In this document: positions 29,492-43,491 of the stretch, one piece after another
Position numbering within the stretch: the stretch's first letter is position 1
Layout of the letters: each line of letters begins with the position of its first letter
DNA from: Spirochaetia bacterium
GTDB taxonomy: Bacteria > Spirochaetota > Spirochaetia > UBA9216
Length of the DNA: 64,000 nucleotides
Direction: 5' to 3'
Assembly (NCBI GenBank): GCA_965140585.1
Contig: OZ223270.1
Coordinates: 256,001 to 320,000 of the forward strand
The notes under the pieces: model-generated
The model's database searches: none
What the model was told of the DNA's origin: nothing
What the model saw: the letters and a program-made list of their open reading frames with translations, nothing else
Translations under genes and position numbers: made by a program

Positions 29492-31894
29492 TCATAAAAG
29501 AACAGCCTCCACTTCAGCGCTTCTGCTCATGCCTCTAAGTAGATCTTCTGTTATAACATTCCCCGGACATACCAGACCATTTATCCTGAACTCGCGGACG
29601 CCACCGCAGCAGGATTCAGGATTTGAAATTTTTATGCTGAGATCAATTCCGCGAAACTTCCGTTTCACTGTGAACCCATCCCAGGAGGCGGGGATACAGG
29701 GGTCTATTTTCAGGCCTTCAAACACCGGCCGTATTCCAAGAATGTACTCTGTTGCGGCCCTGTATGCCCATGCGGCAGTTCCTGTAAGCCAGGAGTTCCG
29801 CCCAAGACCGAAGCATGGATGTTCGTCACTCAGAATATTCTGGGCATAGCAGTAGGGTTCGCATTCATAAGTATCAATAATTTCATTTTTAGCCGCAGGA
29901 TTAATTGCGCAGTAATAGTCAAAAGCTCTCTCTCCGTTACCAAGCATTGATTCGGCTATCATAACCCATGGGTTTGCGTGAAGAAATATTCCCGCATTCT
30001 CCTTTGCTCCCGGCGGATATGTTGTGACACCGCCCTTTTCGGGATCATAGCCTTCATATCCAGGACTCATCAGTTTGATTCCCGCTTCAGTCGCAAGCCG
30101 CCGGTTTACAGAATCAAGAGCCCTGACAGCCCTGTCCCTCGGGGCAAAGCCGCTTAATACCGCCCAGCTCTGTGCATTAGCAAAGATTGATGCATACCTG
30201 TCTTCAGGTGCACCGAGAGCCTTCCCCCTGTGATCGAAATAGCGGACATACCAGTCGCCGACCCAGGCTTCGGCATTAAAGATATCTTTCATTTTCACAT
30301 AATCCGCCTGAAGCCTTTCAACCAAAGCTGAATCCAGACCGCAGTATTCCAGAAGCTGAATCATTTCGCTTAAAGCAAAGCCGTAAAGACATGCTATGAA
30401 AGAAGATTCTGCTCCGGCAGGGAGATTAACAGTATCATTCCAGTCTGCAAAACCCAGAAGAGGAAGCCCGTGAGCTCCGGTGTTCTCTCCGGTAAATTTC
30501 AACGCCCGCAGCAAATGCTCAAGCACCGATGCAGATTCATCTGAATCATAAAATCTGATTTCTTTATCAAGGAAGGAAGTGTCACCGGTTTCTTTTATAA
30601 GCGAACATACAGCATATACAGCCCATAGGTGATCATCGCCGTAATACTGAGGCCGGTCGGGCATTTCTTCAGTTTCCCCCGGATGAGCTTCCCCCGAAAG
30701 AGGATTGTACTGATGCATTGCTGAACCGTTGGTTTTCTGGGTTTTAAGGATTTCCAGAAGGTAGTCAGCAGCCTCGGCCGGTTTCTGCGATATGATTCCG
30801 CATACATCCTGACAGGCATCCCTGAAACCTATTCCCCGTGCCCCGTATCCGGTCTGATAAATCGAAAGATATCGCGCCCAGTTCTTGGTTATGTAGCACT
30901 GCCTGGGATTATGAATATTCACCATGCTGTTCATATCATCAGCAGGAGTTTTGGCCTGAAAATAAGAAAGATGCTCATCCCAGAAATTCTTAATATTGCT
31001 GAAAGCTGAATTAACAACATCTTCAGAGCTGAACCTCTCAACAGCAGACACAGCACCGGCTTCCGAATCCGCCTGCCCGAGCATGGTAAAGAAGCGCTCA
31101 GTTTTTCCCGGAGCTATCTCAAGAGGAATCATAAGTACGGCTATATTATCACCGCGCTTCGCCTCTGTTCCCGGCAGTTCAGCTGCACTCAGGGCTGCAG
31201 GAGATTTCCACGAGCCGTATTCATTTGAACCAATAAAAACCCTCCGATCTGTTTCGAAGGATGAAGCAGCCCTGCTGGAACTGAAATAATTAAGCATTGT
31301 GTCGCGGTTCATATAGGCGGACTGAAGCAGAACAGTACTGCCAGAACTGCTTTTTACGGCACGGCTCTGCATGGTCTGGGGAACCCAGTCAGCGTTTGTA
31401 AGCTGCTTTAGCGCATCGAAGTGAGAATATTCTACAGCCGGAATGAAATCCAGCTTCAGCGTTTTATCGGACTTATTATGAATCCTGACATCCCTGATTT
31501 CAAGTTTTTCATCAACCGGGACAAAGATACAAATCTCTGATTCAAACTCTCCGGAATCAGTCTTTAAGATCAGGTACTGTGTTCCGATACGGCATTCATA
31601 ACTAATAATCCCTTCAGGAGAGGGCAGATAAAACGGGCTCAGAAGCCTGTAACCCGAAGCATCCTTAATCCGAATATATGCAGTAGTTCCGCGCATCTCG
31701 CCGGCAACCAGGAATGAGAGGTAACGTGTTATCCGGTTCAGAGCCGGGTCACCGCAGCAGAGCAGGGCTCCGCCTGTATGGTCGACAAAACCGCCGAAGG
31801 CAATTGTGCCGATATAGTTTATCCATTTAACAGGTGTGAGAGGATTGGTAATAACGTATTCCTTTGAATCATCATCAAAGTAGCCGTATGTCAC
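29492..31894 (-). CDS. GH94 glycoside phosphorylase (cellodextrin phosphorylase-like)
   Basis: WINY, GFRD, ADWND catalytic Asp, KENAGIFLH, NSWLTGTA. Confidence 0.88.
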   Translation of the reverse strand: MTYGYFDDDSKEYVITNPLTPVKWINYIGTIAFGGFVDHTGGALLCCGDPALNRITRYLSFLVAGEMRGTTAYIRIKDASGYRLLSPFYLPSPEGIISYECRIGTQYLILKTDSGEFESEICIFVPVDEKLEIRDVRIHNKSDKTLKLDFIPAVEYSHFDALKQLTNADWVPQTMQSRAVKSSSGSTVLLQSAYMNRDTMLNYFSSSRAASSFETDRRVFIGSNEYGSWKSPAALSAAELPGTEAKRGDNIAVLMIPLEIAPGKTERFFTMLGQADSEAGAVSAVERFSSEDVVNSAFSNIKNFWDEHLSYFQAKTPADDMNSMVNIHNPRQCYITKNWARYLSIYQTGYGARGIGFRDACQDVCGIISQKPAEAADYLLEILKTQKTNGSAMHQYNPLSGEAHPGETEEMPDRPQYYGDDHLWAVYAVCSLIKETGDTSFLDKEIRFYDSDESASVLEHLLRALKFTGENTGAHGLPLLGFADWNDTVNLPAGAESSFIACLYGFALSEMIQLLEYCGLDSALVERLQADYVKMKDIFNAEAWVGDWYVRYFDHRGKALGAPEDRYASIFANAQSWAVLSGFAPRDRAVRALDSVNRRLATEAGIKLMSPGYEGYDPEKGGVTTYPPGAKENAGIFLHANPWVMIAESMLGNGERAFDYYCAINPAAKNEIIDTYECEPYCYAQNILSDEHPCFGLGRNSWLTGTAAWAYRAATEYILGIRPVFEGLKIDPCIPASWDGFTVKRKFRGIDLSIKISNPESCCGGVREFRINGLVCPGNVITEDLLRGMSRSAEVEAVLL

Positions 31895-34323
31895 AGAAGC
31901 ACCTCTACATAATGTTCTGAATTATCAGAGAAGTAAGGAACGAACTTGCCCTCCACAGACATTCCGTCTACCTTCACCGAAGGAGCTTCACCGGCAGACG
32001 ATGCCCGTTTAACTTCAATACGGTAAAGGCTGCCTCTGCAGGTTCTTTCAACTGTAAATCCGCTCCAGTCTTCAGGAATTACCGGGTCTACAACCAGATG
32101 ATCAAAATCAGGTCTGATCCCCAGCACATACTGTGTGAAAGCAAAGAAGCTCCAGGATGCCGTACCGGTAAGCCATGAGTTCTTGGCTTCACCCTGAATA
32201 AAACCATCGCGGCCGGATATCATCTGCGAATATACATAGGGCTCTGTCTTATGCCTTTCCATAAGCGCATCATCATATCCCGGGCATATAGTCCGGTGAT
32301 ATTCCATAGCCTGAGCTCCGCGGCCCGCCATGGTCTCGGCAATTATTACCCAGGGATTATTGTGGCAGAAGATTGAACCGTTTTCCTTGTAGCCTTCCGG
32401 ATAACTCGATATTTCTCCCAGCTCAATATGGTAGCCGGTGTAGGGCGGCGAAAGGATCTGGATGCCGTAGGGTGAGTACAGATGCTTTTTAACTGAATCA
32501 AGAGCCTTAAGAGGTAATCCCTCATCCTTTCCAATCTCAGCCATCCCGCACATTCCCTGCGGTTCAATATAGATACTGCCTTCCGGGCATTCACGGCTGC
32601 CTACCCTGCTTCCATTGTGATCATATGCCCTGACAAACCACTCGCCGTCCCAGCCCTCGGCTTTTACAGCAGCTTCCATAGAGCTGATAGCCCCGTCCAT
32701 TTCCTCTGCGTCCTTATCAAGCCCGAGCTTACGGCAGAGGGCTGAGAAAGCACGGCCGGAGTATATAAACAGGCCGGCGATAAAAACAGATTCAGCTTTT
32801 CCCCCTTCGGCATGTCCGCAGGTCTGAAAAGATTCGTCAGGGTTATCCGAAAATGCATTGAGGTTCAGACAGTCGTTCCAGTCGCCCCGCCCGATAAGCG
32901 GAAGCCCGTGCGGACCGAGGTTTGAAAGCGTGAACCTGAATGAGCTTCTTATATGATCAAGCAGACTGCCGGTTTCTCCGTCACGATCCGCCCATTTGAC
33001 CTGTTCATCAAGAATGGAATAATCTCCGGTTTCCCTTACGTAGGTTGCCACTCCCATCGGCAGCCATAGCGGATCATCATTGAAATCTCCGCCGATATCA
33101 CTGTTGCCGGTCTTGGTCAAAGGCTGATACTGGTGATACGAGCTGCCGTCTGCAAACTGAAGGGACGCACCATCCAGTATTCTGGTTCTGACCCTCTGCG
33201 GCACAAGATGGTTGCAGGAAAGGGTATCCTGAAATGTATCCCTGAAACCGATGCCCCGGCTTATTCCTGATTCAAAAAGAGAGGCGCTTCGGGCAAGGTT
33301 GAACGTAACCATGCACTGGTACTGGTTCCAGGTGTTTATAATGCGGTCAATTTTGTTGTCAGGGGTTGAAATCTGAAATGCTGAAAGATAATCAGTCCAG
33401 TATTCCGCAAGATCTGCCAGGCCTGCAGCAATCTTTTCAGCCGAATCATACTTGCTAATCATTTCCAATGCTTCATCTTTTCGAAGCTTTCCCTTATCAT
33501 CCCATTTCTGATCACGGGGATTTTCGGCATAGCCGAGAACAAAGACAGCGGTTCTGCTTTCTCCGGGAGCAAGAGTCATTTTAAGATGGTGCGAGGCCTG
33601 CGGATGCCATCCGTGACAGACTGAATTTCCCGCTTTACCTGCTTCTACCGCCTGCGGCATAGCCAGCCCACGGTTTCGGCCCAGGAATGAGTCCCGATCG
33701 GTATCAAAGCCGGTGTAATCATCTGATACACAGCTGAAAAATGAATAATGGTTTCTTCTTTCCCGGTATTCGGTGCGATGATAAATAACCTGATTTTCAA
33801 TTTCCACTTCTCCGGTGCTGAAGTTGCGCTGAAAGTTGGTCATATCATCAAGAGCATTCCAGAGGCAGAACTCCACAAAAGAAAAGACATCTACAGTCTT
33901 TTGAGAACTGCTCTTATTACTCACTTTCAGGCGGATTACTTCACCCTTATATCCGCGGGGAATGAAATGCAGCTGTGAAACTTCAAGTCCGTTTTTAGCT
34001 CCGGTGATTTCGGTATAGCCCATTCCATGCCTGCATGAATAACTGTCAAGTTCTGCACATACCGGTTTGAATGAAGGACTCCAGACATCATTTCCATCAT
34101 TTATATAGAAGTAACGGCCGTTGCTGTCCACCGGAACATCATTGTAGCGGTACCTTGTAATACGTCTGAGCTTGGGATCCCGGTAAAAGGCATAACCTCC
34201 GGCTGTGTTGCTTATAATGGAAAAGAACTCATCGGTTCCAAGGTAGTTTATCCATGGATATGGTGTATCGGGTGTATTAATAAGGAATTCCCGTGCTTTT
34301 TCATCGAACTGTCCGAAACTCAC
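31891..34323 (-). CDS. GH94 cellobiose phosphorylase
   Basis: PYPWINYLG, DDMTNFQRN, GFRD, HQYQPLT, DWNDCLNL, KENGSIFCH, NSWLTGTA. Confidence 0.9.
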   Translation of the reverse strand: MSFGQFDEKAREFLINTPDTPYPWINYLGTDEFFSIISNTAGGYAFYRDPKLRRITRYRYNDVPVDSNGRYFYINDGNDVWSPSFKPVCAELDSYSCRHGMGYTEITGAKNGLEVSQLHFIPRGYKGEVIRLKVSNKSSSQKTVDVFSFVEFCLWNALDDMTNFQRNFSTGEVEIENQVIYHRTEYRERRNHYSFFSCVSDDYTGFDTDRDSFLGRNRGLAMPQAVEAGKAGNSVCHGWHPQASHHLKMTLAPGESRTAVFVLGYAENPRDQKWDDKGKLRKDEALEMISKYDSAEKIAAGLADLAEYWTDYLSAFQISTPDNKIDRIINTWNQYQCMVTFNLARSASLFESGISRGIGFRDTFQDTLSCNHLVPQRVRTRILDGASLQFADGSSYHQYQPLTKTGNSDIGGDFNDDPLWLPMGVATYVRETGDYSILDEQVKWADRDGETGSLLDHIRSSFRFTLSNLGPHGLPLIGRGDWNDCLNLNAFSDNPDESFQTCGHAEGGKAESVFIAGLFIYSGRAFSALCRKLGLDKDAEEMDGAISSMEAAVKAEGWDGEWFVRAYDHNGSRVGSRECPEGSIYIEPQGMCGMAEIGKDEGLPLKALDSVKKHLYSPYGIQILSPPYTGYHIELGEISSYPEGYKENGSIFCHNNPWVIIAETMAGRGAQAMEYHRTICPGYDDALMERHKTEPYVYSQMISGRDGFIQGEAKNSWLTGTASWSFFAFTQYVLGIRPDFDHLVVDPVIPEDWSGFTVERTCRGSLYRIEVKRASSAGEAPSVKVDGMSVEGKFVPYFSDNSEHYVEVLL

Positions 34324-35513
34324 TATACTGCTTCTCCTCTGGCGTCAACGATAGACTCTATGCTGCTTATAATATTCTGCCTGGTGCTCTGATTCTGGTC
34401 CGGAGAGATTGTCTGGGGCGGAATTGAAAAGAGATGCTCCAGAATGAGACCTGAAGCTCCATAGGCAACAGAAAACTCTTTTTTGGAAAACTCCGAAATG
34501 CTGCACTCCGGCTGTTCACTGTACATCCAGTTATCTTTTATGGCTGCTTTCATAACAGGAATAATCTCATCCTGAAAATCAGTCTCTGTTCCTCCAAAGA
34601 AAAGATGATCCATATTGAATGTATTAACAAGAAGTGCCGCATTTTTCGAAAGCTCGCTTATAAACTTCATAAAGACCGATTTATCATTCATGACATTTAC
34701 GGTCTCATCCTTTGTAAGTGAGAACTGATTAAGACTTCCCGGTGCAGTGAATATACTTTTGAACTCACCGGCTGTGTGGTCCGACCCGCTGTAGACCTTC
34801 CGATCTATCGCTATTCCAAGACCGACAGCAATACCGCCCTTTCCTGTATTCAGAATCTCATCCTTTCTGAACTCAATAAGAAGAACAAGGTAATTCCTCA
34901 GTTTTTCATCACGGTTAAGGGCCAGCTCTCCCCAGGCACAGCAGTTGGCATCATTCTCAATAAAGACAGGGATGCTGAAACTGTGCTTTTCAAATTCCTC
35001 ATAAACATTAAAATCTGAAGTTATATCAAGCGGTATTGATCTTCTGATGATCCCGTTAACAGAATCAATAATACCGGAAATACCTATACCAACAGAAATA
35101 ATCGGAGCTTCAATCTCCTTCTGAATTGAATTAGTGATCTCAATAATTTTAGACGCAAGGTTTTCACTTGTAAAAACCTCGTTTCTTATTTCTGAACGAA
35201 TCAGTTCACCTTCAAGATTTGTTACAGCAAGCTTGTATGATGAATAAGGCTGAATTTCCACACCCAGAATTACGCCGAAGTTCTTGTTAATTGCAAGATG
35301 CACCGGCTTACGTCCGCCTGTTGCTCCTGCCTTGCCTTCTGCTATGGTTTCAATAATTCCTGATTCAAGCAGTTTTGAAACAATCAGGGTAACAGTTGAT
35401 TTATCGATTTCAAGAAGTCTTGAAAGCTCAATCCTGCTTATACCCTTGTTCTGCCATACTGCCCGGAGAATCTTCGGGATATTTAATGAATTTGTGTCAG
35501 TAAAAAATGCCAA
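34323..35513 (-). CDS. ROK family transcriptional regulator
   Basis: ISRIELSRLLEIDKSTVT HTH, GGRKP, ENDAN, AGE. Confidence 0.9.
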   Translation of the reverse strand: MAFFTDTNSLNIPKILRAVWQNKGISRIELSRLLEIDKSTVTLIVSKLLESGIIETIAEGKAGATGGRKPVHLAINKNFGVILGVEIQPYSSYKLAVTNLEGELIRSEIRNEVFTSENLASKIIEITNSIQKEIEAPIISVGIGISGIIDSVNGIIRRSIPLDITSDFNVYEEFEKHSFSIPVFIENDANCCAWGELALNRDEKLRNYLVLLIEFRKDEILNTGKGGIAVGLGIAIDRKVYSGSDHTAGEFKSIFTAPGSLNQFSLTKDETVNVMNDKSVFMKFISELSKNAALLVNTFNMDHLFFGGTETDFQDEIIPVMKAAIKDNWMYSEQPECSISEFSKKEFSVAYGASGLILEHLFSIPPQTISPDQNQSTRQNIISSIESIVDARGEAV

Positions 35514-35625: not shown

Positions 35626-35656
35626 TTGACCTTCCCATTTTGGCAAGGTTTATAAT
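35626..35656 (+). promoter_or_regulatory. MerR-type promoter (19-bp spacer with dyad) of the GRE gene
   Basis: TTGACC-ttcccattttggcaaggtt-TATAAT; dyad ACCTTCCCA-ttt-TGGCAAGGT. Confidence 0.85.
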
Positions 35657-35685
35657 TTTTTTGTAACCCAAATGGAGGAAAATAT

Positions 35686-38076
35686 ATGATTACTGCAAGA
35701 GTCCAGAGAATGATGGACCGGCTGGAGGTAGAGAAATATCCGATACTAGCCGAAAAGGCCAGGCTTACAATTGAAGCATGGAACAGTCACGAAGGTCTTC
35801 CTTCCGTCCTGCAGCGTGCTTATGCTACCGCACACTACCTTGATAACCGCACCATTTATATAGATGACGATGAGCTTATTGCCGGAAATGTATCCAGCAA
35901 ACCGATGGGAATGGAAGCGGCAACATGGGGGCCCTTCTGGGAGGATAAGGATCTCGAAACAATGGACAGCGTTTTTGAGATCAGTGATGAGGATCGTAAA
36001 ACACTTAGAGGCCTTGATTCTTTCTGGGAAGGCAAGGGCCGTCAGATTTATGAATGGCAGGGACGTTACTATGACGATCACCACTTATGGCCTTTTATAA
36101 GATCAGGAATCCTCTGCCCGCCCTGGACAGATAAAACCAAGGGACGCGGTTCAGGAGGCGCAGGCTTCGGATGGGGTCTGGGAATCGGACTCTCATTCTT
36201 TGTTCCTGACTATGAAAAAATTGTAAAAGAAGGAATAAGCAAAACCCTGCATGATGCTGAGCAGGAACTTTTAACTCTCAGATACCATGACCAGGATTCA
36301 ATCGACAAGGCGGACTACCTTAAGGCGGTAATTATTGCGCTCAGTTCCATGGTAAGAATGTACCACCGCTACGGAGACGCCTGTCAGAAGAAGGCGGATG
36401 AAACTGCTGATGAAACACGAAAGAAGGAATTTCTGCGAATGGCCGACACCTGTCACTGGATAGCCGATAATCCTTCCCGCAATTTCCGTGACGCCCTTCA
36501 GAATTTCTATTTTTACTGGATGATGATTGCCCACGGAGTTACTCCGGGCGGCCGCTTTGACCAGTACATGTACCCATTCTATAAAAAAGACATTGAATCC
36601 GGTGAAATTACCGAGGATGAGGTAATAGAACTTCTGGGAATGCTTCGAATCAAGATAATGCAGTTCAACTTTATAAGCGGCGGAGCACTTCAGCGCGATA
36701 AATGGGCAGGAATGGCCAGATGGCACAACTTTGTCATCGGCGGTGTTGATAAAGACGGAAACGACGCAACAAACGAACTGTCCTACCATGTTCTTCAGGC
36801 TGCATTCGACGTAAGAGTTCCGCAGTACACAATTACTATCAGGGTAAACAAGAACACTCCCGACGCACTTATGAAAAAGGGAGCAGAACTGGTAAGAACG
36901 GGAATAGGAATGCCGGCCTTTATATCCGACGACAGCTATATCTCCGGTCTTGTTGACCAGGGAGTCCCGCTTGAAGAGGCTCGCGGCTATGCCCTTGCCG
37001 GCTGTCTGGATCTAAACATCCCCGGAAAATCCAGAATAAACGCCCTGGGTATGTTCATAGTTCCAAAGGTTCTGGATATAACAATGCATAACGGGTTACT
37101 TACTTCAACCGGAGAGCAGATCGGTCCTAAAACCGGAGAAATGAAAGACTTTAAAACCTTTGATGAGTTCTACACTGCCTTCAAGACCCAGCTTTTTCAC
37201 TTTATGGGTATGTACAATGAGGAACATAATATTCTTATCCATGTAACCCACCATACTCAGCCTGATGTAGTGCATTCAGCCTTCACCTATGAGGGTATAA
37301 CTTCCGGAAAGGACATGAATCAGCGGAAGATGTTCTACGAGAATGCATCAATGTTCAATCCTGTAGGCATGATTAACGTCGTAAATTCAATGGCAGCTGT
37401 TAAGAAACTTGTTTTTGATGAAAAGAAATTTTCAATGGTAGAACTCTATTCTGCTATTGAGGCTGACTGGCTCGGATATGAAAATATTCAGGATCTCTGC
37501 CTGAATGCTCCAAAATACGGAAACAACGACTCTTTCGTTGATGAAATTGCCAAAGATCTCTTCGGATACTGGATATCATCAACTTCAAAATTCAGATCCG
37601 TTTACGGTGAACAGCCCAGACCGACCGGAATATCAATTACCGCGCACGCACCGGGCGGTTCATACACCTGCGCAACTCCTGACGGCCGAAAATCTGGTGA
37701 AACCCTCTGTGACGGGGTAGTCTCTCCAGCCCAGGGAAGTGATGTTCATGGTCCAACAGCCTCTCTGCAGAGCGCAATGCAGATCGATCAGACTCCGTTC
37801 AATGCCATGCTGCTGAATATGAAAATTGATCCTAGCGCACTTAAAAGTGATTCTGATCTTATGAAGCTTTCCGCGCTTATCAAAACCTACATGTTCAACG
37901 GCGGAAAACATATTCAGTTCAACGTTGTAGACAATAAAACACTTAGAACTGCACAGATAACACCTGAAAAATACAGGGATCTGATTGTAAGGGTTGCAGG
38001 ATACAGCACCTATTTCACAATTCTCACACCTGCTGTGCAGGAAGAAATCATTAAGCGGACGGAAAATAAGCTATAG
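35686..38076 (+). CDS. Glycyl radical enzyme (PFL2-like superfamily), function unknown
   Basis: GRFDQY, Cys loop AGCLD (C440), PKYGN, ATPDGR, HIQFN, RVAGYS (G772); RBS GGAGG. Confidence 0.95.
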   Translation: MITARVQRMMDRLEVEKYPILAEKARLTIEAWNSHEGLPSVLQRAYATAHYLDNRTIYIDDDELIAGNVSSKPMGMEAATWGPFWEDKDLETMDSVFEISDEDRKTLRGLDSFWEGKGRQIYEWQGRYYDDHHLWPFIRSGILCPPWTDKTKGRGSGGAGFGWGLGIGLSFFVPDYEKIVKEGISKTLHDAEQELLTLRYHDQDSIDKADYLKAVIIALSSMVRMYHRYGDACQKKADETADETRKKEFLRMADTCHWIADNPSRNFRDALQNFYFYWMMIAHGVTPGGRFDQYMYPFYKKDIESGEITEDEVIELLGMLRIKIMQFNFISGGALQRDKWAGMARWHNFVIGGVDKDGNDATNELSYHVLQAAFDVRVPQYTITIRVNKNTPDALMKKGAELVRTGIGMPAFISDDSYISGLVDQGVPLEEARGYALAGCLDLNIPGKSRINALGMFIVPKVLDITMHNGLLTSTGEQIGPKTGEMKDFKTFDEFYTAFKTQLFHFMGMYNEEHNILIHVTHHTQPDVVHSAFTYEGITSGKDMNQRKMFYENASMFNPVGMINVVNSMAAVKKLVFDEKKFSMVELYSAIEADWLGYENIQDLCLNAPKYGNNDSFVDEIAKDLFGYWISSTSKFRSVYGEQPRPTGISITAHAPGGSYTCATPDGRKSGETLCDGVVSPAQGSDVHGPTASLQSAMQIDQTPFNAMLLNMKIDPSALKSDSDLMKLSALIKTYMFNGGKHIQFNVVDNKTLRTAQITPEKYRDLIVRVAGYSTYFTILTPAVQEEIIKRTENKL

Positions 38077-38130
38077 AGATTCGATAATCCTTCTAAATAT
38101 CGATTATTTAAAAACGTTACAACCAGCCAT

Positions 38131-38166
38131 GGGGTCATCCAATTTTTATTGGATGACCTCCTTTTT
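38131..38166 (+). terminator. Intrinsic terminator after the GRE gene
   Basis: GGTCATCCAAT...ATTGGATGACC stem followed by CTTTTT. Confidence 0.75.
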
Positions 38167-38212
38167 AAAAACTGCGATAAACACTGATTTTGATCAATGA
38201 AATTAATTTTTC

Positions 38213-38243
38213 TTGACCTTCCCAATATGGTAAGGCTTAAAAT
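38213..38243 (+). promoter_or_regulatory. MerR-type promoter (19-bp spacer with dyad) of tctBAC
   Basis: TTGACC-ttcccaatatggtaaggct-TAAAAT; near copy of 35626-35656. Confidence 0.85.
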
Positions 38244-38339
38244 TTCGAGAAATTCACAAAAGAATTGGTTGATTATCGGTTGGCGGCACTGACATGCATT
38301 GCGCAGCTAAAAACTGAGAAAATAATAAGGAGAAGGGTT

Positions 38340-38813
38340 TTGACCTCGAAATTTATCCACAAGGACAGAGTTCTCGGACTCATAATGCTGGCTGTAACGG
38401 CGTTCTTCGTATTTCACACCTTAAGACTGCCTGAATCTTACGTTCAGGGTGATCCCGGCCCACGAGTATTCCCCTACATAGGTTGTTTTCTTCTGGGAAT
38501 AATCGGAATTTCCTATCTGTTCAAGAAAAATCCGGACACAAAAACCGTTATGGACAGGGAAGAGCTGAAACGTCTTGTGCTTCTGTTTTCCCTGTATGTA
38601 CTGTTCTTTGTACTGCTCTGGCTTTTCGGCTACCTTGTTGCGATTCCTGCGGCGACATTCCTTATTTCAATGCTGTTCTCAAGGGAAGCAAGTATTAAAA
38701 CCAGAAGCGTAATTATTTATACCGCACTGGTTACGCTAGGAATCTACATCGCATACGTTGTAGCTCTCGGCTCTTCTCTTCCGAAGGGCATATTCTGGAA
38801 CCTTTTCAGGTAG
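38340..38813 (+). CDS. tctB: Tripartite tricarboxylate transporter small subunit TctB
   Basis: GPRVFP, FGY and LPKG motifs; TTG start at 38340 after AGGAG. Confidence 0.85.
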   Translation: MTSKFIHKDRVLGLIMLAVTAFFVFHTLRLPESYVQGDPGPRVFPYIGCFLLGIIGISYLFKKNPDTKTVMDREELKRLVLLFSLYVLFFVLLWLFGYLVAIPAATFLISMLFSREASIKTRSVIIYTALVTLGIYIAYVVALGSSLPKGIFWNLFR

Positions 38814-38831
38814 AAAAGGAAGGTAGACAAA

Positions 38832-40331
38832 ATGATACTTGAAACATTACAGGCAATCGCCACACCTGCGGGATTAATTTATATATTCGGAGGAGCCGTT
38901 CTGGGAATGCTTCTCGGTGCAATCCCCGGACTCAGCGGAGGAACAATAACAATCCTGCTGCTTCCGATATCCTACAAAATGAATCCGGCCCTTGCTTTGG
39001 GTCTGTTTACTTCAATTTACATTGGAAGTACATCCGGAGGCTGTATCGGATCTATTCTGCTTGGAATCCCGGGTACTAACTCATCTATAGTCACTACATT
39101 TGACGGTTATCCGCTAACAAAAAAGGGAGAGCCGGTACGTGCACTCAGTGCCGCTGTAAGCTCAAACTTCATAGCAATGATTCCATCACTTATCATAGCC
39201 ATAATAGCAGCGCCCCTGCTTGCAAAACTTGCTGTAAAACTCGGCCCCTGGGAATATTTTGCACTATGTCTCTGTGCAATTGCAATGGTTGTAGGCCTTT
39301 CAAAAGAGAATGCCTCAAAGGGATTACTTGCTGTAGGACTTGCAATTATAGCTGCATCAGTTGGAATGGCTCCAATTTCCTCTACTCAGCGTTTCACATT
39401 CGGAAACCTCTACCTCTTTGACGGCTTCAGCATTGTAAACATTATGATGGGAATGTTCGCCGCAAAGATTATTCTTCAGGAGTTTGCAAGCGGAAAAAAA
39501 GCCAAGGAAGCATCAAACATAAAAGTCAGCGGATTTAAACTGCCTGTGAGAGACCTGCTTAATAATGTGGGCAACATCATCAGATCCTTTTTCACCGGTC
39601 TTATTATAGGCTTCCTGCCGGGGCTAGGAGGAAAGACTTCTACATTCCTTGCCTATTCAACTGAAAGAAACCTGTCAAAGAACAAGGAAAACTGGGGCAA
39701 AGGAGAAATAGGCGGAGTTATCGCTCCAGAGGTTGCAAACAATGCCGGAATAGGCGGAGAGCTTATTCCGCTGATAGCCCTTGGCATACCGGGAAGCACA
39801 CCAATGACCTTATTCCTTGCTGCACTTACAATTCACGGTATCAATCCGGGACCTCTTTTAATTAGAAATAATCCTGAAATCGTTTATATGATCTACATCG
39901 CAGCTATCATAGCCGCAGTGCTCATCCTGATTGTTGAAATAGTAGGCATGCCCATTTTCCCGAGAATGCTAAAGGCTCCTTATCACTATCTGTACCCATT
40001 AATTATCATAATCTCACTGCTTGGAGCCTTTCTCTGCGGAAACAGCCTCTATGGTCTTTTCATAACCCTTGTTGCATGTCTGATGGGATTGGCAATGGAT
40101 TATTTCGGTATTCCTATTGTGCCATTTATCATGACCTTTATACTCAGTCCGCTTCTTGAGAAAAACTTAAGAATGGCGCTGAATTATTCAGACACCGGAT
40201 TCCTGTCATTTTTGACAAGACCTGTAAGTGCAATCCTTCTGGTTATTGCAGCAGCAGTTCTAATCTGGAATCTTATCGGCCACCACATAAAACCGAAAAA
40301 GACAAAGGAAACTGCAGGCACAGCTCTGTAG
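38832..40331 (+). CDS. tctA: Tripartite tricarboxylate transporter large subunit TctA
   Basis: GAIPGL, GIPGT, FDGYP, RFTFG, GFLPGLG, APEVANNA, LGIPGS. Confidence 0.93.
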   Translation: MILETLQAIATPAGLIYIFGGAVLGMLLGAIPGLSGGTITILLLPISYKMNPALALGLFTSIYIGSTSGGCIGSILLGIPGTNSSIVTTFDGYPLTKKGEPVRALSAAVSSNFIAMIPSLIIAIIAAPLLAKLAVKLGPWEYFALCLCAIAMVVGLSKENASKGLLAVGLAIIAASVGMAPISSTQRFTFGNLYLFDGFSIVNIMMGMFAAKIILQEFASGKKAKEASNIKVSGFKLPVRDLLNNVGNIIRSFFTGLIIGFLPGLGGKTSTFLAYSTERNLSKNKENWGKGEIGGVIAPEVANNAGIGGELIPLIALGIPGSTPMTLFLAALTIHGINPGPLLIRNNPEIVYMIYIAAIIAAVLILIVEIVGMPIFPRMLKAPYHYLYPLIIIISLLGAFLCGNSLYGLFITLVACLMGLAMDYFGIPIVPFIMTFILSPLLEKNLRMALNYSDTGFLSFLTRPVSAILLVIAAAVLIWNLIGHHIKPKKTKETAGTAL

Positions 40332-40395
40332 AAATAATGTAAACGGTACCCGGAGAGCATATCCCGGGTATTAAAATATAAATGAGGAGAAAAGA

Positions 40396-41418
40396 ATGAA
40401 AAAGATGAGGAAAGTTTTACTGCTGCTGATCGCGGTAATGCTGGTATTCGGACTGCAGCTGGCTACTGCATCAGGACAGGAAGAAGCAGGTGCTGAAGGA
40501 AGCAGCGCTGTTGATTCATGGCCTACAAAGGATGTAAATGTTTACATTCCAAACCCTCCAGGATCACCACTTGATCTTTCAGTAAGAATAATGCTCGAGT
40601 ACCTTAGTGAAAAAACAGGCGGAACCTTTATTCCCCTGAACGAAACAACAGGAGTGGGAACACTTGCTCTGCAGAAACTTTCTGCAGCCAAACCCGATGG
40701 TAGCACAATTATGTTCACAGGTTCCGGAAGCAATATCCAGTACCACACCGGACAGAACACCATCAATCCCCTTGATGAAAGTAAGGTTACAATTATCTCT
40801 TCATCAGCAGGACTTAAAATTGACTTCGATTCAGTTCTAGTCACAGTTCCAGAAAGCCCCTATCAGACCTGGGAAGAGTTCCTTGCATATGTAAGAGCAA
40901 ACCCCGGAAAAGTTAACTATGGGACAAGCACAGGATCAACTGTAGAAGTAAAAGCGAAACTGATTCTTGATCAGTTCGACCTGACCGATAAAGTTAAACT
41001 TGTCTACGCACCAAGCACAGAGATTCCAATCGGAATGCTTGGAGGTTCAATCGATGTGGCAATGGTATCAGGCTTCAGCGGGCTTCAGTATCTTGAAGAA
41101 GGCTCATTCATTCCAATGATGCACACTATTGATGAGTATAATGGAAACAACCCTGTTTTCCTTGGTGTTCCGACCTACACAGATCTCGGATGTCCGGAAC
41201 TTTATTCTGCATTCCCGATGTATGTTATCGGCCCCGGAAACATGGATCCGCTGCTGGTTATGAAGATCAATTCTACAATGGCAGGCGCTGCTGACGATCC
41301 CGATTACGTTGCACGCTGGGACAAGATGCACAGTATCTACGTCCCCAAGAGCCCCGAAACTATCAGGGCCGAAGTTATGGTAATGGACAAAAACATAGAA
41401 AGAGTTTTCAAAAAATAA
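40396..41418 (+). CDS. tctC: Tripartite tricarboxylate transporter solute receptor TctC (Bug family)
   Basis: WPTKDV, AKPDGSTI, SPYQTWEEF, ANPGKVNYG, VPT motifs; signal peptide. Confidence 0.88.
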   Translation: MKKMRKVLLLLIAVMLVFGLQLATASGQEEAGAEGSSAVDSWPTKDVNVYIPNPPGSPLDLSVRIMLEYLSEKTGGTFIPLNETTGVGTLALQKLSAAKPDGSTIMFTGSGSNIQYHTGQNTINPLDESKVTIISSSAGLKIDFDSVLVTVPESPYQTWEEFLAYVRANPGKVNYGTSTGSTVEVKAKLILDQFDLTDKVKLVYAPSTEIPIGMLGGSIDVAMVSGFSGLQYLEEGSFIPMMHTIDEYNGNNPVFLGVPTYTDLGCPELYSAFPMYVIGPGNMDPLLVMKINSTMAGAADDPDYVARWDKMHSIYVPKSPETIRAEVMVMDKNIERVFKK

Positions 41419-41428
41419 AACTTATTCA

Positions 41429-41455
41429 TGCGGGAGGTGGTTCCTGCCTCCCGCA
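41429..41455. other. GC-rich hairpin after tctC, no U-tract
   Basis: TGCGGGAGG...CCTCCCGCA. Confidence 0.55.
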
Positions 41456-41471
41456 GATCCTTGAGAAATTT

Positions 41472-42302
41472 ATGAACAAAAACTGGGGCTCCGATAATTT
41501 ACTGATAGGCCAGATGGCCAGAATGCATAATATCTCACCGAAAATGCTGCGCTATTGGGACAGGATTGATGTGCTAAAACCCGCAGTAACCAATGAAATT
41601 AACGGCTACAGGTATTATACCACCAGACAGTTCCATACACTTAATTTCATAGTCTATATGCGCTCAATGGGTCTTTCATACAAGGAAATTAAAAATTACC
41701 TTAAAAACGACCATCACAACAGCCTGATTGAACTTCTTGATTCACAGATTGATATTAGCGAAAAACGAATACTGGAACTTCAGACTACACAGACAATGCT
41801 CAAGGGACTGAAATCAGAGATTGAGAATGCTCTGGATGTGAAGCAGGATGAGGCGGTCAGACTTGAACGGAGAAAGGCCAGACAGATTATTCGGATGAAG
41901 GGTGAAATCAAAACCAGGGTCGAGTTTGAAAAACTGGTATACAGTCTTCGAAATAAAATTGAGAACAAACCTCATATTCTGATGCCGAAGGTTGGATTGT
42001 TCCTTGATCGGGAAGAATTTAAAAATGGAAATTTTGACGTATTCAGCGGAATCTACATTCTTAAAGAAAACTACAACACCTCCCCCGGGCTTATTGCAAG
42101 CCTGCCGGCCGGAGACTACGCATCAATCACTTTCTGGGGACGGACTGAAGAATCTGAAAATCAGTTTGCCAAACTGGTTGATTTTCTGGATCGGAACAAT
42201 CTTCAGATGAAGGATGATGTTATACGCTGTGTAGTTGCTCCCGGTATGCATGAGGACGAGCGTGGTCATCTGGCTCAGATTGCTGTCAGAGTTTCTGACT
42301 GA
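41472..42302 (+). CDS. MerR family regulator with GyrI-like ligand-binding domain (BmrR/BltR-like)
   Basis: IGQMA...LRYWD...NGYRYY...MGLSYKEI, coiled coil, LPAGDYA. Confidence 0.92.
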   Translation: MNKNWGSDNLLIGQMARMHNISPKMLRYWDRIDVLKPAVTNEINGYRYYTTRQFHTLNFIVYMRSMGLSYKEIKNYLKNDHHNSLIELLDSQIDISEKRILELQTTQTMLKGLKSEIENALDVKQDEAVRLERRKARQIIRMKGEIKTRVEFEKLVYSLRNKIENKPHILMPKVGLFLDREEFKNGNFDVFSGIYILKENYNTSPGLIASLPAGDYASITFWGRTEESENQFAKLVDFLDRNNLQMKDDVIRCVVAPGMHEDERGHLAQIAVRVSD

Positions 42303-42304
42303 AA

Positions 42305-43030
42305 CTATTCCCAGGGCGTTTTAGTTTTTCGTCTTACAACAATCTCATCTATAACAGCATTACCCTTCATTTTCAGCAGAAAGCCTACTGATGCCGCAAT
42401 ATCTTCAGGCTGAATCATTTCCGATGTGTCAATATCAGGCCTGACAGTTCTTACCATATCGGTATCAACCCCGCCCGGCAGCACTGCATGAACACGGATA
42501 TTGGTTTTAGATAAATCACGGGCTGTTGATTTTGTCAGGCCGTAGAGAGCATGCTTTGATGCTGAATATAAAACCTGATTCTCATAACCCTTCTGTGAAA
42601 CAATTGAACAGATATTTATTATAAAACCGGGGTCTGCCTTCTTCAGATAAGGGATTGCTTCCTGAATCAGAAAAAAGGGAATTTTTGCATTTATATTCAT
42701 CACACGATCCCATTCCTCTGAAGAATATCCGCCGACAGGCTTTGCCATTGTAATTCCAGCATTATTTACAAGCAGATCCAGCCTGCCGAACTGTTCAACA
42801 GAAGCTCTTACTATATCAGCACAGTCAGAAACCTCAGCAAGCTCAGCCTCCCGTATAAAGACATCCGCTTTATCTTCTGAAGAAAGTGATTCAAAAACCT
42901 TAGCCTTGGTTTCTTCAAGCCTGGCTGCATTTCTTCCTGTAAGAAAGAGACTGTATCCCTGGGAAGCTGCTTCTACTGCTATAGCCCTTCCTATACCGCC
43001 CGAAGCCCCGGTAATAAGTGCAGCCTTCAT
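42305..43030 (-). CDS. Short-chain dehydrogenase/reductase
   Basis: TGASGGIG, NNAG, YSASK. Confidence 0.93.
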   Translation of the reverse strand: MKAALITGASGGIGRAIAVEAASQGYSLFLTGRNAARLEETKAKVFESLSSEDKADVFIREAELAEVSDCADIVRASVEQFGRLDLLVNNAGITMAKPVGGYSSEEWDRVMNINAKIPFFLIQEAIPYLKKADPGFIINICSIVSQKGYENQVLYSASKHALYGLTKSTARDLSKTNIRVHAVLPGGVDTDMVRTVRPDIDTSEMIQPEDIAASVGFLLKMKGNAVIDEIVVRRKTKTPWE

Positions 43031-43491
43031 TTCTTAAGTACATCCATAGCCTTCGAAACAGTATCTCCAGGCTTAACCTTATACCAGGCTTCTAAAATTT
43101 TACCATCGGGATCAACAAGAAAGGAAGATCTGATGATACCGAAATACTTTTTACCATACATACTCTTCTCTCCCCAGACATTGAATGCCTCTGCAACTGT
43201 ATGCTCTTCATCAGCGAGAAGAGGAAATCCAAGTTCGTATTTTTCATCAAATTTTTTCTGTTTCACAGGCGCATCCGGACTTATACCGACGGCTTTACAG
43301 CTTAGTTTTGAAAAGTCATCACGGGCCTCACTGACGGCACAGCTCTGGGTTGTACAGCCGGAAGTCATGGCTTTCGGATAAAAGTACACAAGCAGGTAAC
43401 TTCCTTTAAAATCTTTAAGTTCAACTGTATTTCCGTCCTGATCAGAAAGTGAAAAATCGGGGCACTTATCCCCTGCTTTAAGTTTATCCAT
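43027..43491 (-). CDS. bcp: Peroxiredoxin BCP/PrxQ
   Basis: YFYPKAMTSGCTTQSC, GISPD, KSMYGK, RSSF. Confidence 0.93.
   Translation of the reverse strand: MDKLKAGDKCPDFSLSDQDGNTVELKDFKGSYLLVYFYPKAMTSGCTTQSCAVSEARDDFSKLSCKAVGISPDAPVKQKKFDEKYELGFPLLADEEHTVAEAFNVWGEKSMYGKKYFGIIRSSFLVDPDGKILEAWYKVKPGDTVSKAMDVLKK

Follow-up and report, generated by a model that had tools for sequence, protein, structure and literature searches.

A candidate MerR-regulated glycyl radical enzyme system with a tripartite tricarboxylate transporter in a Spirochaetia bacterium

Which compound is handled by a glycyl radical enzyme (GRE) whose gene lies beside a tripartite tricarboxylate transporter (TTT) and a ligand-sensing MerR-type regulator, and do the three serve one pathway? 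The question is raised by five plus-strand genes (GRE, tctB, tctA, tctC, and merR, together spanning 35686 to 42302) in a 64,000-nucleotide stretch of a Spirochaetia bacterium, hereafter the window (G000:C7:256001-320000; host genome, 4.85 Mb, 98.5% complete). Here, we report a computational analysis which suggests that the locus is probably a small ligand-inducible regulon through which an imported di- or tricarboxylic acid is used anaerobically, and that it probably marks an undescribed anaerobic route for organic-acid breakdown. Gene families were assigned by Pfam profile search, and positions follow the window numbering (Table 1). A reading made earlier from the letters and open reading frames (the sequence-only reading) had listed the same five genes on the plus strand, with which the open reading frames and Pfam families agree, and had proposed an inducible anaerobic radical pathway for an organic acid; this proposal gains support from an enzyme outside the characterised classes and from a linkage and a promoter that are conserved.

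The enzyme, GRE1, has the barrel and the C-terminal radical domain of PFL-like GREs, with the Cys loop G439-C440-L441-D442 (C440 aligns with the catalytic Cys433 of glycerol dehydratase) and the glycyl radical motif R769-V-A-G772-Y-S. C440, D442, and G772, and with them the whole radical motif, were invariant in 30 of 30 aligned sequences of the clade with C-x-D in this loop (CXD), so GRE1 is intact; N444, W346, N348, a Gly-rich stretch (G155, G157, G162, G164, G166), S650, I651, P656, G657, and G658 were also invariant among the 30. GRE1 was scored against nine NCBIfam GRE families with curated whole-protein cut-offs (the subfamily TIGR01774 and eight equivalogs) and fell under all nine (score/cut-off in bits: TIGR01774, 517/678; CutC, 463/1050; HypD, 484/1100; HpsG, 509/1000; HpfG, 415/1000; IAD, 475/1100; HPAD, 390/1150; PRK09983 formate C-acetyltransferase, 406/1109; PFL, 122/994). 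The best solved relative in a search of PDB sequences was glycerol dehydratase 1R8W (451 bits, residues 17 to 794), and the remaining solved GRE classes scored close behind it, so that no class stands out. GRE1 shares with 1R8W the fold, the length, the position of the Cys loop, and the glycyl radical motif, but the pocket differs: GCVE in 1R8W is GCLD in GRE1, and the positions of His164, Ser282, and Asp447, which we take to be glycerol-binding residues, hold Phe, Gly, and Ala. The solved eliminases aligned with GRE1 were all C-V-E and arylacetate decarboxylase 7E7L was C-V-L; none was C-x-D.

Section 5 of a review by Imrich et al. (June 2026; PMC13450708) lists every characterised GRE, with all eliminases and isomerases keeping C-x-E (CXE) and all C-S lyases retaining it; it gives the equivalent Glu of eliminases and isomerases a hydrogen bond to the substrate hydroxyl, names Glu435 and His164 of glycerol dehydratase, and names neither a di- or tricarboxylate substrate of a GRE nor “CXD.” GRE1 departs from CXE (C440-L-D442) with an acidic residue still in place, and an eliminase-like mechanism may be compatible with that residue at Cys+2. 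The sequence-only reading had made its case depend on an enzyme outside the characterised classes, and outside them GRE1 stays, by its nine scores below cut-off, its altered 1R8W pocket, and its CLD in place of CXE. Two further assignments were tried and rejected: formate lyase (PFL, TdcE) requires two adjacent catalytic Cys and the GRE1 loop has a single one, and an X-succinate synthase or HPAD-type decarboxylase would call for a small accessory (Fe-S) subunit, for which no open reading frame fits between GRE and tctB (TutD, 269 bits; HPAD, 292 bits in the PDB search).

CXD was found in 120 of the 120 closest database homologues of GRE1 (57 to 100% identity). Of the 150 top-scoring representatives of clusters made at 50% identity, 20 had C-x-D, 71 had C-x-E, and 59 had other residues, the C-x-D representatives being concentrated among those nearest to GRE1 (37 to 54% identity). 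A sample of 301 genomes of the class yielded GRE1 orthologues (at least 83% identity) only in G000, G039, and G184, and CXD paralogues (43 to 52%) in G039, G013, G184, and G196; GRE1 is 99% identical in locus L016, from a Spirochaetia metagenome-assembled genome. Clade orthologues are also carried by Clostridia of rumen, gut, and digester, including two cultured Clostridium isolates (L030 and L035), in which the orthologue is paired with an activase. In a quick maximum likelihood tree (SH-aLRT support only, midpoint root, long-branch warning for two CXE outgroups), the three spirochaete GRE1 sequences formed one starred group nested among Bacillota sequences, sister (98) to an Oscillospiraceae/Clostridiales group with a TTT beside GRE1 in four of its loci (L018, L019, L022, and L025); GRE1 genes linked to both MatC and PrpD were placed in separate sub-groups. 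Gene exchange is likely to have taken place between this spirochaete family and Bacillota, in a direction that the tree does not prove.

Both transcription units of the locus open on a MerR-type promoter with a 19-nt spacer. The dyad CCTTCCCA-N3-TGGnAAGG sits between the hexamers in each, the two promoters are 85% identical over 33 nt, and the 23-nt pattern TTGACCTTCCCANNNTGGNAAGG matches twice in the window, with 0 of 100 shuffles giving even one match; the sequence-only reading was thus right to place matching MerR promoters before GRE and tctB. The 16-base dyad core has exactly three copies in the 4.85-Mb genome, namely, the two window sites and one at C6:339460, directly upstream of the activase gene on contig C6 (TTGACC, 19 nt, TACCAT), and all three exact copies precede operons of CXD GREs. 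These predicted sites, two in the window and the third on C6, have the form of BmrR-subtype target promoters (19- to 20-bp spacer, dyad between −35 and −10). The GRE promoter is conserved in L016 and L017, and the tct promoter in L016. The regulator itself aligns over its whole length with BmrR (residues 11 to 256 with BmrR 7 to 257) and has the architecture of that subtype, its GyrI-like domain scoring 23.5 bits, slightly below the 26-bit cut-off.

The 188-nt gap between GRE and tctB holds a terminator and a promoter only, and no open reading frame fits. The strong hairpin there is predicted to end the GRE transcript and to separate GRE from the tct promoter; hairpin and T run together suggest that GRE is monocistronic and that tctBAC-merR forms a second unit. 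As the last gene of that unit, merR is probably autoregulated. Rfam gave 0 matches across the window, so no riboswitch accounts for the regulation. Two more TTGACC-19-nt promoters, with the related dyad ACCTTACCA-N3-GGGTAAGG, were seen at G000:C4:313303 (−) and G000:C2:265793 (−); the genes behind them resemble each other (products beginning MSTLTPKENYIRVL and MTLKENYLTAL), and MerR paralogues other than those treated here may control them as regulons.

The genome has three CXD modules in addition to that of the window: on C6, merR-activase-GRE (44%)-matC, on the minus strand; on C9, tctB-tctA-tctC-prpD-like-PGA_cap-like-GRE (44%), with a divergent PucR gene; and, also on C9, araC-GRE (52%) divergent from a DHDPS-family gene (pyruvate-aldolase/KdgD-like) and a TRAP dctPQM transporter. 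Stop codons divide the AraC-linked GRE paralogue (G000:C9:321440-323333; L049 7410-9756) into at least three open reading frames; its counterpart in G039 (L082) is intact. The GRE activase profile had no match on contig C7, and the sole intact activase gene lies outside the window, in the C6 module (G000:C6:338523-339392; TIGR02494, 356 bits, above cut-off). A second activase gene (G000:C1:752986-753720) is split over three frames beside a CXE-type GRE (C1:750360-752324) and is likely a pseudogene, leaving one intact activase for five intact GRE genes. The radical-SAM activase that a GRE calls for is thus available to the cell through C6, and because it stands under the same operator in a paralogous operon, its absence from the window is explained by a shared regulon, within which it would activate GRE1 in trans. 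The earlier statement that there is no activase gene accordingly stands for contig C7 and falls for the system as a whole.

Full-length comparison of the MerR proteins of the window and of C6 gives 34% identity, with a KMLRYWD stretch in the DNA-binding region common to both. In G184 (another genus of the same family), merR-merR-activase-GRE2a-GRE1 lie on one contig and the operator precedes both activase and GRE1; in G196 (another family), it stands before a merR-adjacent activase-GRE-matC; and in G039 (same genus), both window promoters recur with synteny kept, and the half-site persists before the AraC-linked paralogue. Conservation of the promoter, on which the sequence-only reading had staked its proposal, therefore extends over these three relatives.

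Neighbours were surveyed in 26 genome loci found with GRE1 (codon-usage open reading frame picker, hence approximate gene calls; one Pfam-scanned representative per cluster). The recurring ones were a PucR-type regulator (12 loci), an activase (10), LysR (7), a MatC/CitMHS dicarboxylate/citrate carrier (7), MmgE/PrpD (7), and TctBAC (5), and 11 of the 26 loci had a second or third GRE paralogue (41 to 46% identical to GRE1). Across the clade, the partners that come back are regulators of the PucR, LysR, or MerR type together with MmgE/PrpD-like and PGA_cap-like proteins. TetR, GNAT, PTS EIIBC, a GH1 glycosidase, an integrase, a hybrid-cluster protein, MATE, metallo-beta-lactamase-fold proteins, and D-Ala-D-Ala ligase did not recur. 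Paralogues from the same genome, loci of four relatives, and twelve metagenome contigs were then added to the set, and genes with at least 5 kb of flank were counted against 43 non-clade GRE loci from the same metagenome scan. A TTT, MatC, or TRAP carrier lay within 5 kb of 28 of 45 CXD-clade genes (21 of 33 loci) versus 0 of 43 controls, a comparison which, with a carrier panel drawn from clade neighbours and some loci kin to one another, shows only that these three carrier families are not general GRE neighbours. Adjacency to an activase ran the opposite way (17/45 clade genes versus 36/43 non-clade). The carrier linkage of the clade is a strong tendency rather than a clean statistic; with a TTT beside GRE1 in the sister Oscillospiraceae group and carriers clade-wide, the linkage that the sequence-only reading expected to recur does so.

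The transporter of the window is complete, with TctA, TctB, and TctC families all above Pfam cut-off in contiguous genes, and TctC is likely the primary substrate receptor of the system. TctA is 55 to 62% identical to the TctA encoded beside GRE1 in four Bacillota loci. Among solved proteins, TctC came nearest to TTT receptors for terephthalate, glutamate, adipate, and aspartate, with low scores throughout (at most 78 bits). Against locus L016 of G039 (same genus), TctC is 71% identical (40396-41418 versus L016 12701-13714), with GRE at 99%, TctA at 95%, and MerR at 97%, and nucleotide identity to G039 falls from 91% to 84% across the locus; TctC is either evolving fast or has been replaced by recombination.

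The helper proteins that accompany other clade members have epimerase relatives. The best solved match of the PrpD-like partner was iminodisuccinate epimerase (133 bits), ahead of cis-aconitate decarboxylase, and the sole NCBIfam match of the PGA_cap-like protein was the MslH epimerase, at 97 bits against a 700-bit cut-off. MslH is a lasso-peptide Trp epimerase. A PGA_cap/CapA-family protein was seen beside CXD GREs in four unrelated loci (L092, L096, L102, and the one on G000:C9, at L048 8244-9404).

From these observations we infer which protein binds what, the activation in trans, and the reaction. TctC would capture the acid outside the cell and TctAB would bring it in, whereupon the GyrI-like domain of the BmrR-type MerR would bind either the acid itself or a compound closely derived from it. 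Liganded MerR would activate the two promoters with over-long 19-bp spacers, one driving GRE alone and the other tctBAC-merR, the latter activation amounting to a positive feedback loop. GRE1 would receive its glycyl radical from the C6 activase, encoded under the same operator, and would convert the acid by thiyl-radical chemistry at Cys440, with Asp442 in place of the usual Glu. A di- or tricarboxylate is preferred over a sulfonate, diol, or amine on account of the three carboxylate-carrier families, the relatives of TctC, the PrpD-like partners, and the lack of a sulfite reductase domain (no NIR_SIR domain was found in the 98.5%-complete genome).

For the reaction, we tentatively choose, at somewhat less than an even chance, an isomerisation or 1,2-elimination of a chiral di- or tricarboxylate that bears a hydroxy (or amino) group, with a 2-oxo acid as the product passed to central metabolism; our best guesses at the substrate are tartrate isomers, hydroxycitrate- or isocitrate-like acids, and sugar diacids. 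Elimination on a chiral acid is favoured by the acidic residue retained at Cys+2 (D442), by the epimerase relatives of both helper families (PrpD-like and PGA_cap-like), by the tandem GRE paralogues, which recall the epimer-specific pairs YbiW/PflD and HpyG/HpzG, and by the DHDPS-family gene that accompanies one paralogue.

Several points weigh against this account of the regulon and its chemistry, beginning with the limits of the carrier comparison given above. Polar enzymes already dehydrate 2,3-dihydroxy acids, which leaves the need for a radical unexplained. The mid-region of GRE1 scores marginally best against arylacetate decarboxylase 7E7L (135 bits, versus 130 for glycerol dehydratase) and fits a decarboxylase equally. 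PrpD, PGA_cap, and DHDPS genes are absent from the 64-kb window, and 17 of the 45 clade genes have no carrier within 5 kb. GRE1-linked TctC proteins are only 29 to 36% identical between Spirochaetota and Bacillota, so the transported acid may differ by lineage, and the top solved match of TctC binds an aromatic dicarboxylate, terephthalate. Either of the two MerR paralogues, finally, could be the binder of the shared operator.

The strongest rival keeps the same regulon and makes GRE1 a radical decarboxylase of the imported di- or tricarboxylate (Kolbe-type or by H-atom transfer, as in arylacetate decarboxylases), with itaconate, aconitate, glutaconate, malonate, or oxalate (allylic or alpha-carboxy acids) or a carboxylated arylacetate as candidate substrates and with proton consumption, an unsaturated acid as electron sink, or both as the proposed gain for the cell. 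We consider it unlikely. A minimal module of carrier, enzyme, and regulator (the window; two in L097) can be likened to classical decarboxylation-driven systems, but the binding-protein-dependent TTT and TRAP importers are uptake systems rather than exchangers of precursor and product. The match to 7E7L, which itself lacks the CXE glutamate, leads by only about 5 bits. The PrpD-like partners are related to cis-aconitate decarboxylase and the top solved match of TctC is a terephthalate binder, yet achiral candidate substrates would leave the epimerase-related partners and the tandem paralogues unexplained. Flavoproteins lie near two loci (enoate-reductase-like near L102, fumarate-reductase-like near L091), but in one locus each. 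Na+-decarboxylase beta subunits are present in the genome and are specific to no reading.

It is very unlikely that GRE and transporter are neighbours without a common pathway, with MerR running a stress- or efflux-like response and GRE1 using an internal metabolite. BmrR-type regulators classically control drug efflux, and 12 of 22 GRE1 orthologue loci with enough flank have no carrier within 5 kb; against this stand the 23-nt promoter-operator before both units, found elsewhere only before the activase-GRE-matC operon, the synteny in G039, the TTT adjacency in the sister Bacillota group, and the carrier linkage counted above. Least credible of all is a C-S lyase or dehydratase for a TTT-imported organosulfonate, as in isethionate, dihydroxypropanesulfonate (DHPS), or sulfoacetate metabolism, since, although TTT and TRAP systems are reportedly discussed with the sulfonate GRE pathways of Bilophila and Taurinivorans and HpsG is the second-best NCBIfam match of GRE1, that match reaches about half of its cut-off, C-S lyases all keep CXE where GRE1 has CLD, the usual partners of the clade are MatC/CitMHS carriers and PrpD-like proteins, and the lack of a NIR_SIR sulfite reductase weakens it further. 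Retro-fumarate-addition on tricarballylate was dropped on thermodynamic reasoning, without computation.

The import-and-elimination regulon preferred here has partial precedents among known systems. The nearest is the choline utilisation (cut) cluster of Desulfovibrio alaskensis G20, in which the CutC GRE locus is activated by the substrate-dependent MerR-like protein Dde_3291, and the −35 and −10 boxes flank a palindrome, CnTTCCCCnnnnGGGGAAnG (PMC4045070); the half-site of this palindrome resembles CCTTCCCA of the window. The NCBIfam model of the cut regulator is the top match of the window MerR, at 55 bits over the N-terminal part only (cut-off, 450). Unlike the locus here, CutC is a CXE C-N eliminase acting on the cation choline, with a microcompartment, its own activase, and aldehyde-processing genes; the locus here combines a CXD GRE with an anion importer, lacks a microcompartment, and relies on an activase encoded elsewhere. 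The earlier claim that the arrangement is unlike the characterised GRE clusters which that reading named is hence good for the enzyme, which fits no characterised class, and has to be qualified for the regulator, Dde_3291 being a precedent for MerR activation of a GRE (PMC4045070).

BmrR of Bacillus subtilis matches the regulator in full-length architecture and in a target promoter with a 19-bp spacer and a dyad between the hexamers, but it senses lipophilic cations and drives an efflux pump, whereas the window MerR adjoins an anion importer and a catabolic radical enzyme; these being the regulated genes, its effector is presumably an acid. The sulfonate GREs (IslA/IseG, HpsG, and HpfG) likewise need few enzymes beyond an anaerobic GRE and an importer of the TRAP or TTT type that takes up a small organic anion. 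They differ in keeping CXE and an Arg/Gln/Arg sulfonate clamp (PMC13450708) and in feeding sulfite respiration; GRE1 has CLD and reaches about half of their NCBIfam cut-offs or less, the clamp not having been compared residue by residue. YbiW/PflD and HpyG/HpzG, as treated in the same review (PMC13450708, sections 5.6 and 5.7), are paralogous GREs encoded together, each acting on one epimer of a small polar substrate, and by analogy such epimer-specific pairs may explain the tandem CXD paralogues and their epimerase-like partners; there, however, the motif is CXE, the substrates are sugar phosphates or hydroxyprolines, and no carboxylate-carrier linkage is described in those sections.

Table 1. 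Predicted features of the locus, in window numbering
Feature	Positions	Strand	Details
MerR-type promoter/operator of GRE	35626-35658	+	TTGACC, 19-nt spacer, TATAAT; dyad CCTTCCCATTTTGGCAAGG between the hexamers
GRE1, glycyl radical enzyme	35686-38076	+	796 aa; Pfam PFL-like (PF02901), 505.5 bits; Gly_radical (PF01228), 102.7 bits
Terminator-like hairpin	38131-38170 (hairpin 38131-38160)	+	13 pairs, 6 G-C, then T run
Second MerR-type promoter/operator, for tctBAC-merR	38213-38245	+	TTGACC, 19-nt spacer, TAAAAT; dyad CCTTCCCAATATGGTAAGG
tctB, small membrane subunit of TTT	38265-38813	+	Pfam TctB, 51.6 bits
tctA, large membrane subunit of TTT	38832-40331	+	Pfam TctA, 428.2 bits
tctC, solute-binding protein of TTT	40396-41418	+	Pfam TctC, 71.5 bits
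merR, BmrR-type regulator (MerR helix-turn-helix, coiled coil, GyrI-like effector domain)	41472-42302	+	276 aa; MerR_1, 52.3 bits; MerR, 42.7 bits; MerR-DNA-bind, 28.4 bits

The start of tctB is more likely the TTG at 38340, behind the ribosome-binding site AAGGAGA. Directly upstream of the locus and divergent from the GRE promoter lie two tandem GH94 phosphorylases (cellobiose/chitobiose-phosphorylase type, 800 and 810 amino acids) and a ROK-family regulator with a winged-helix N-terminus (29492-35513, −). Downstream, convergent with merR and 3 bp past it, an SDR oxidoreductase (42305-43030, −) is followed by a Bcp-type thiol peroxidase (peroxiredoxin; 175.5 bits, cut-off 140; the two genes together 42305-43491, −), whose place beside the locus of an oxygen-sensitive enzyme may be coincidence. 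This oxidoreductase is not of the PduP/AdhE type, and the sequence-only reading holds in having found no genes for a microcompartment shell, an aldehyde or alcohol dehydrogenase, or a small Fe-S subunit at the locus. The only shell genes of the genome (four BMC-domain matches, G000:C5:8707-11034) lie away from every GRE gene found, and none is near the locus.

A MerR-like, substrate-dependent activator of a GRE (the cut cluster) and importer-linked GREs for sulfonates are already known. New are the uncharacterised CXD enzyme clade, its consistent tie to carboxylate carriers, and a compact regulon of sensor, importer, and enzyme with an activase shared between paralogous operons; a literature search gave no description of a carboxylate-linked CXD GRE, within a reach that ended before subscription journals and supplements, where similarity-network tables could mark the cluster. 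To our knowledge, aliphatic di- and tricarboxylic acids are a substrate class without a GRE. Whether the CXD clade is a new functional GRE class acting on them, with stereoisomer-specific paralogues served by epimerase-like helpers, we regard as an evenly balanced question; more boldly still, the reaction itself could be of a type not known from GREs, for example a radical decarboxylation whose substrate is a non-aromatic acid.

GRE classes deciphered earlier have each exposed important anaerobic reactions (trimethylamine, p-cresol, skatole, H2S precursors, and hydroxyproline use), and this clade is sizeable, has a different catalytic acid, and shows a consistent link to carboxylate import. 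A very convenient entry to it is given by the window, where TctC and the MerR effector domain, as ligand-binding proteins independent of each other, and a pair of clean promoters are at hand for finding the acid. If the proposal is true, each module of carrier, sensor, and enzyme would by itself let bacteria of gut, rumen, and sediment process an acid of plant or host origin anaerobically, and a substrate that comes from the diet or the host would mean an additional, oxygen-independent route in the turnover of organic acids in anoxic habitats.

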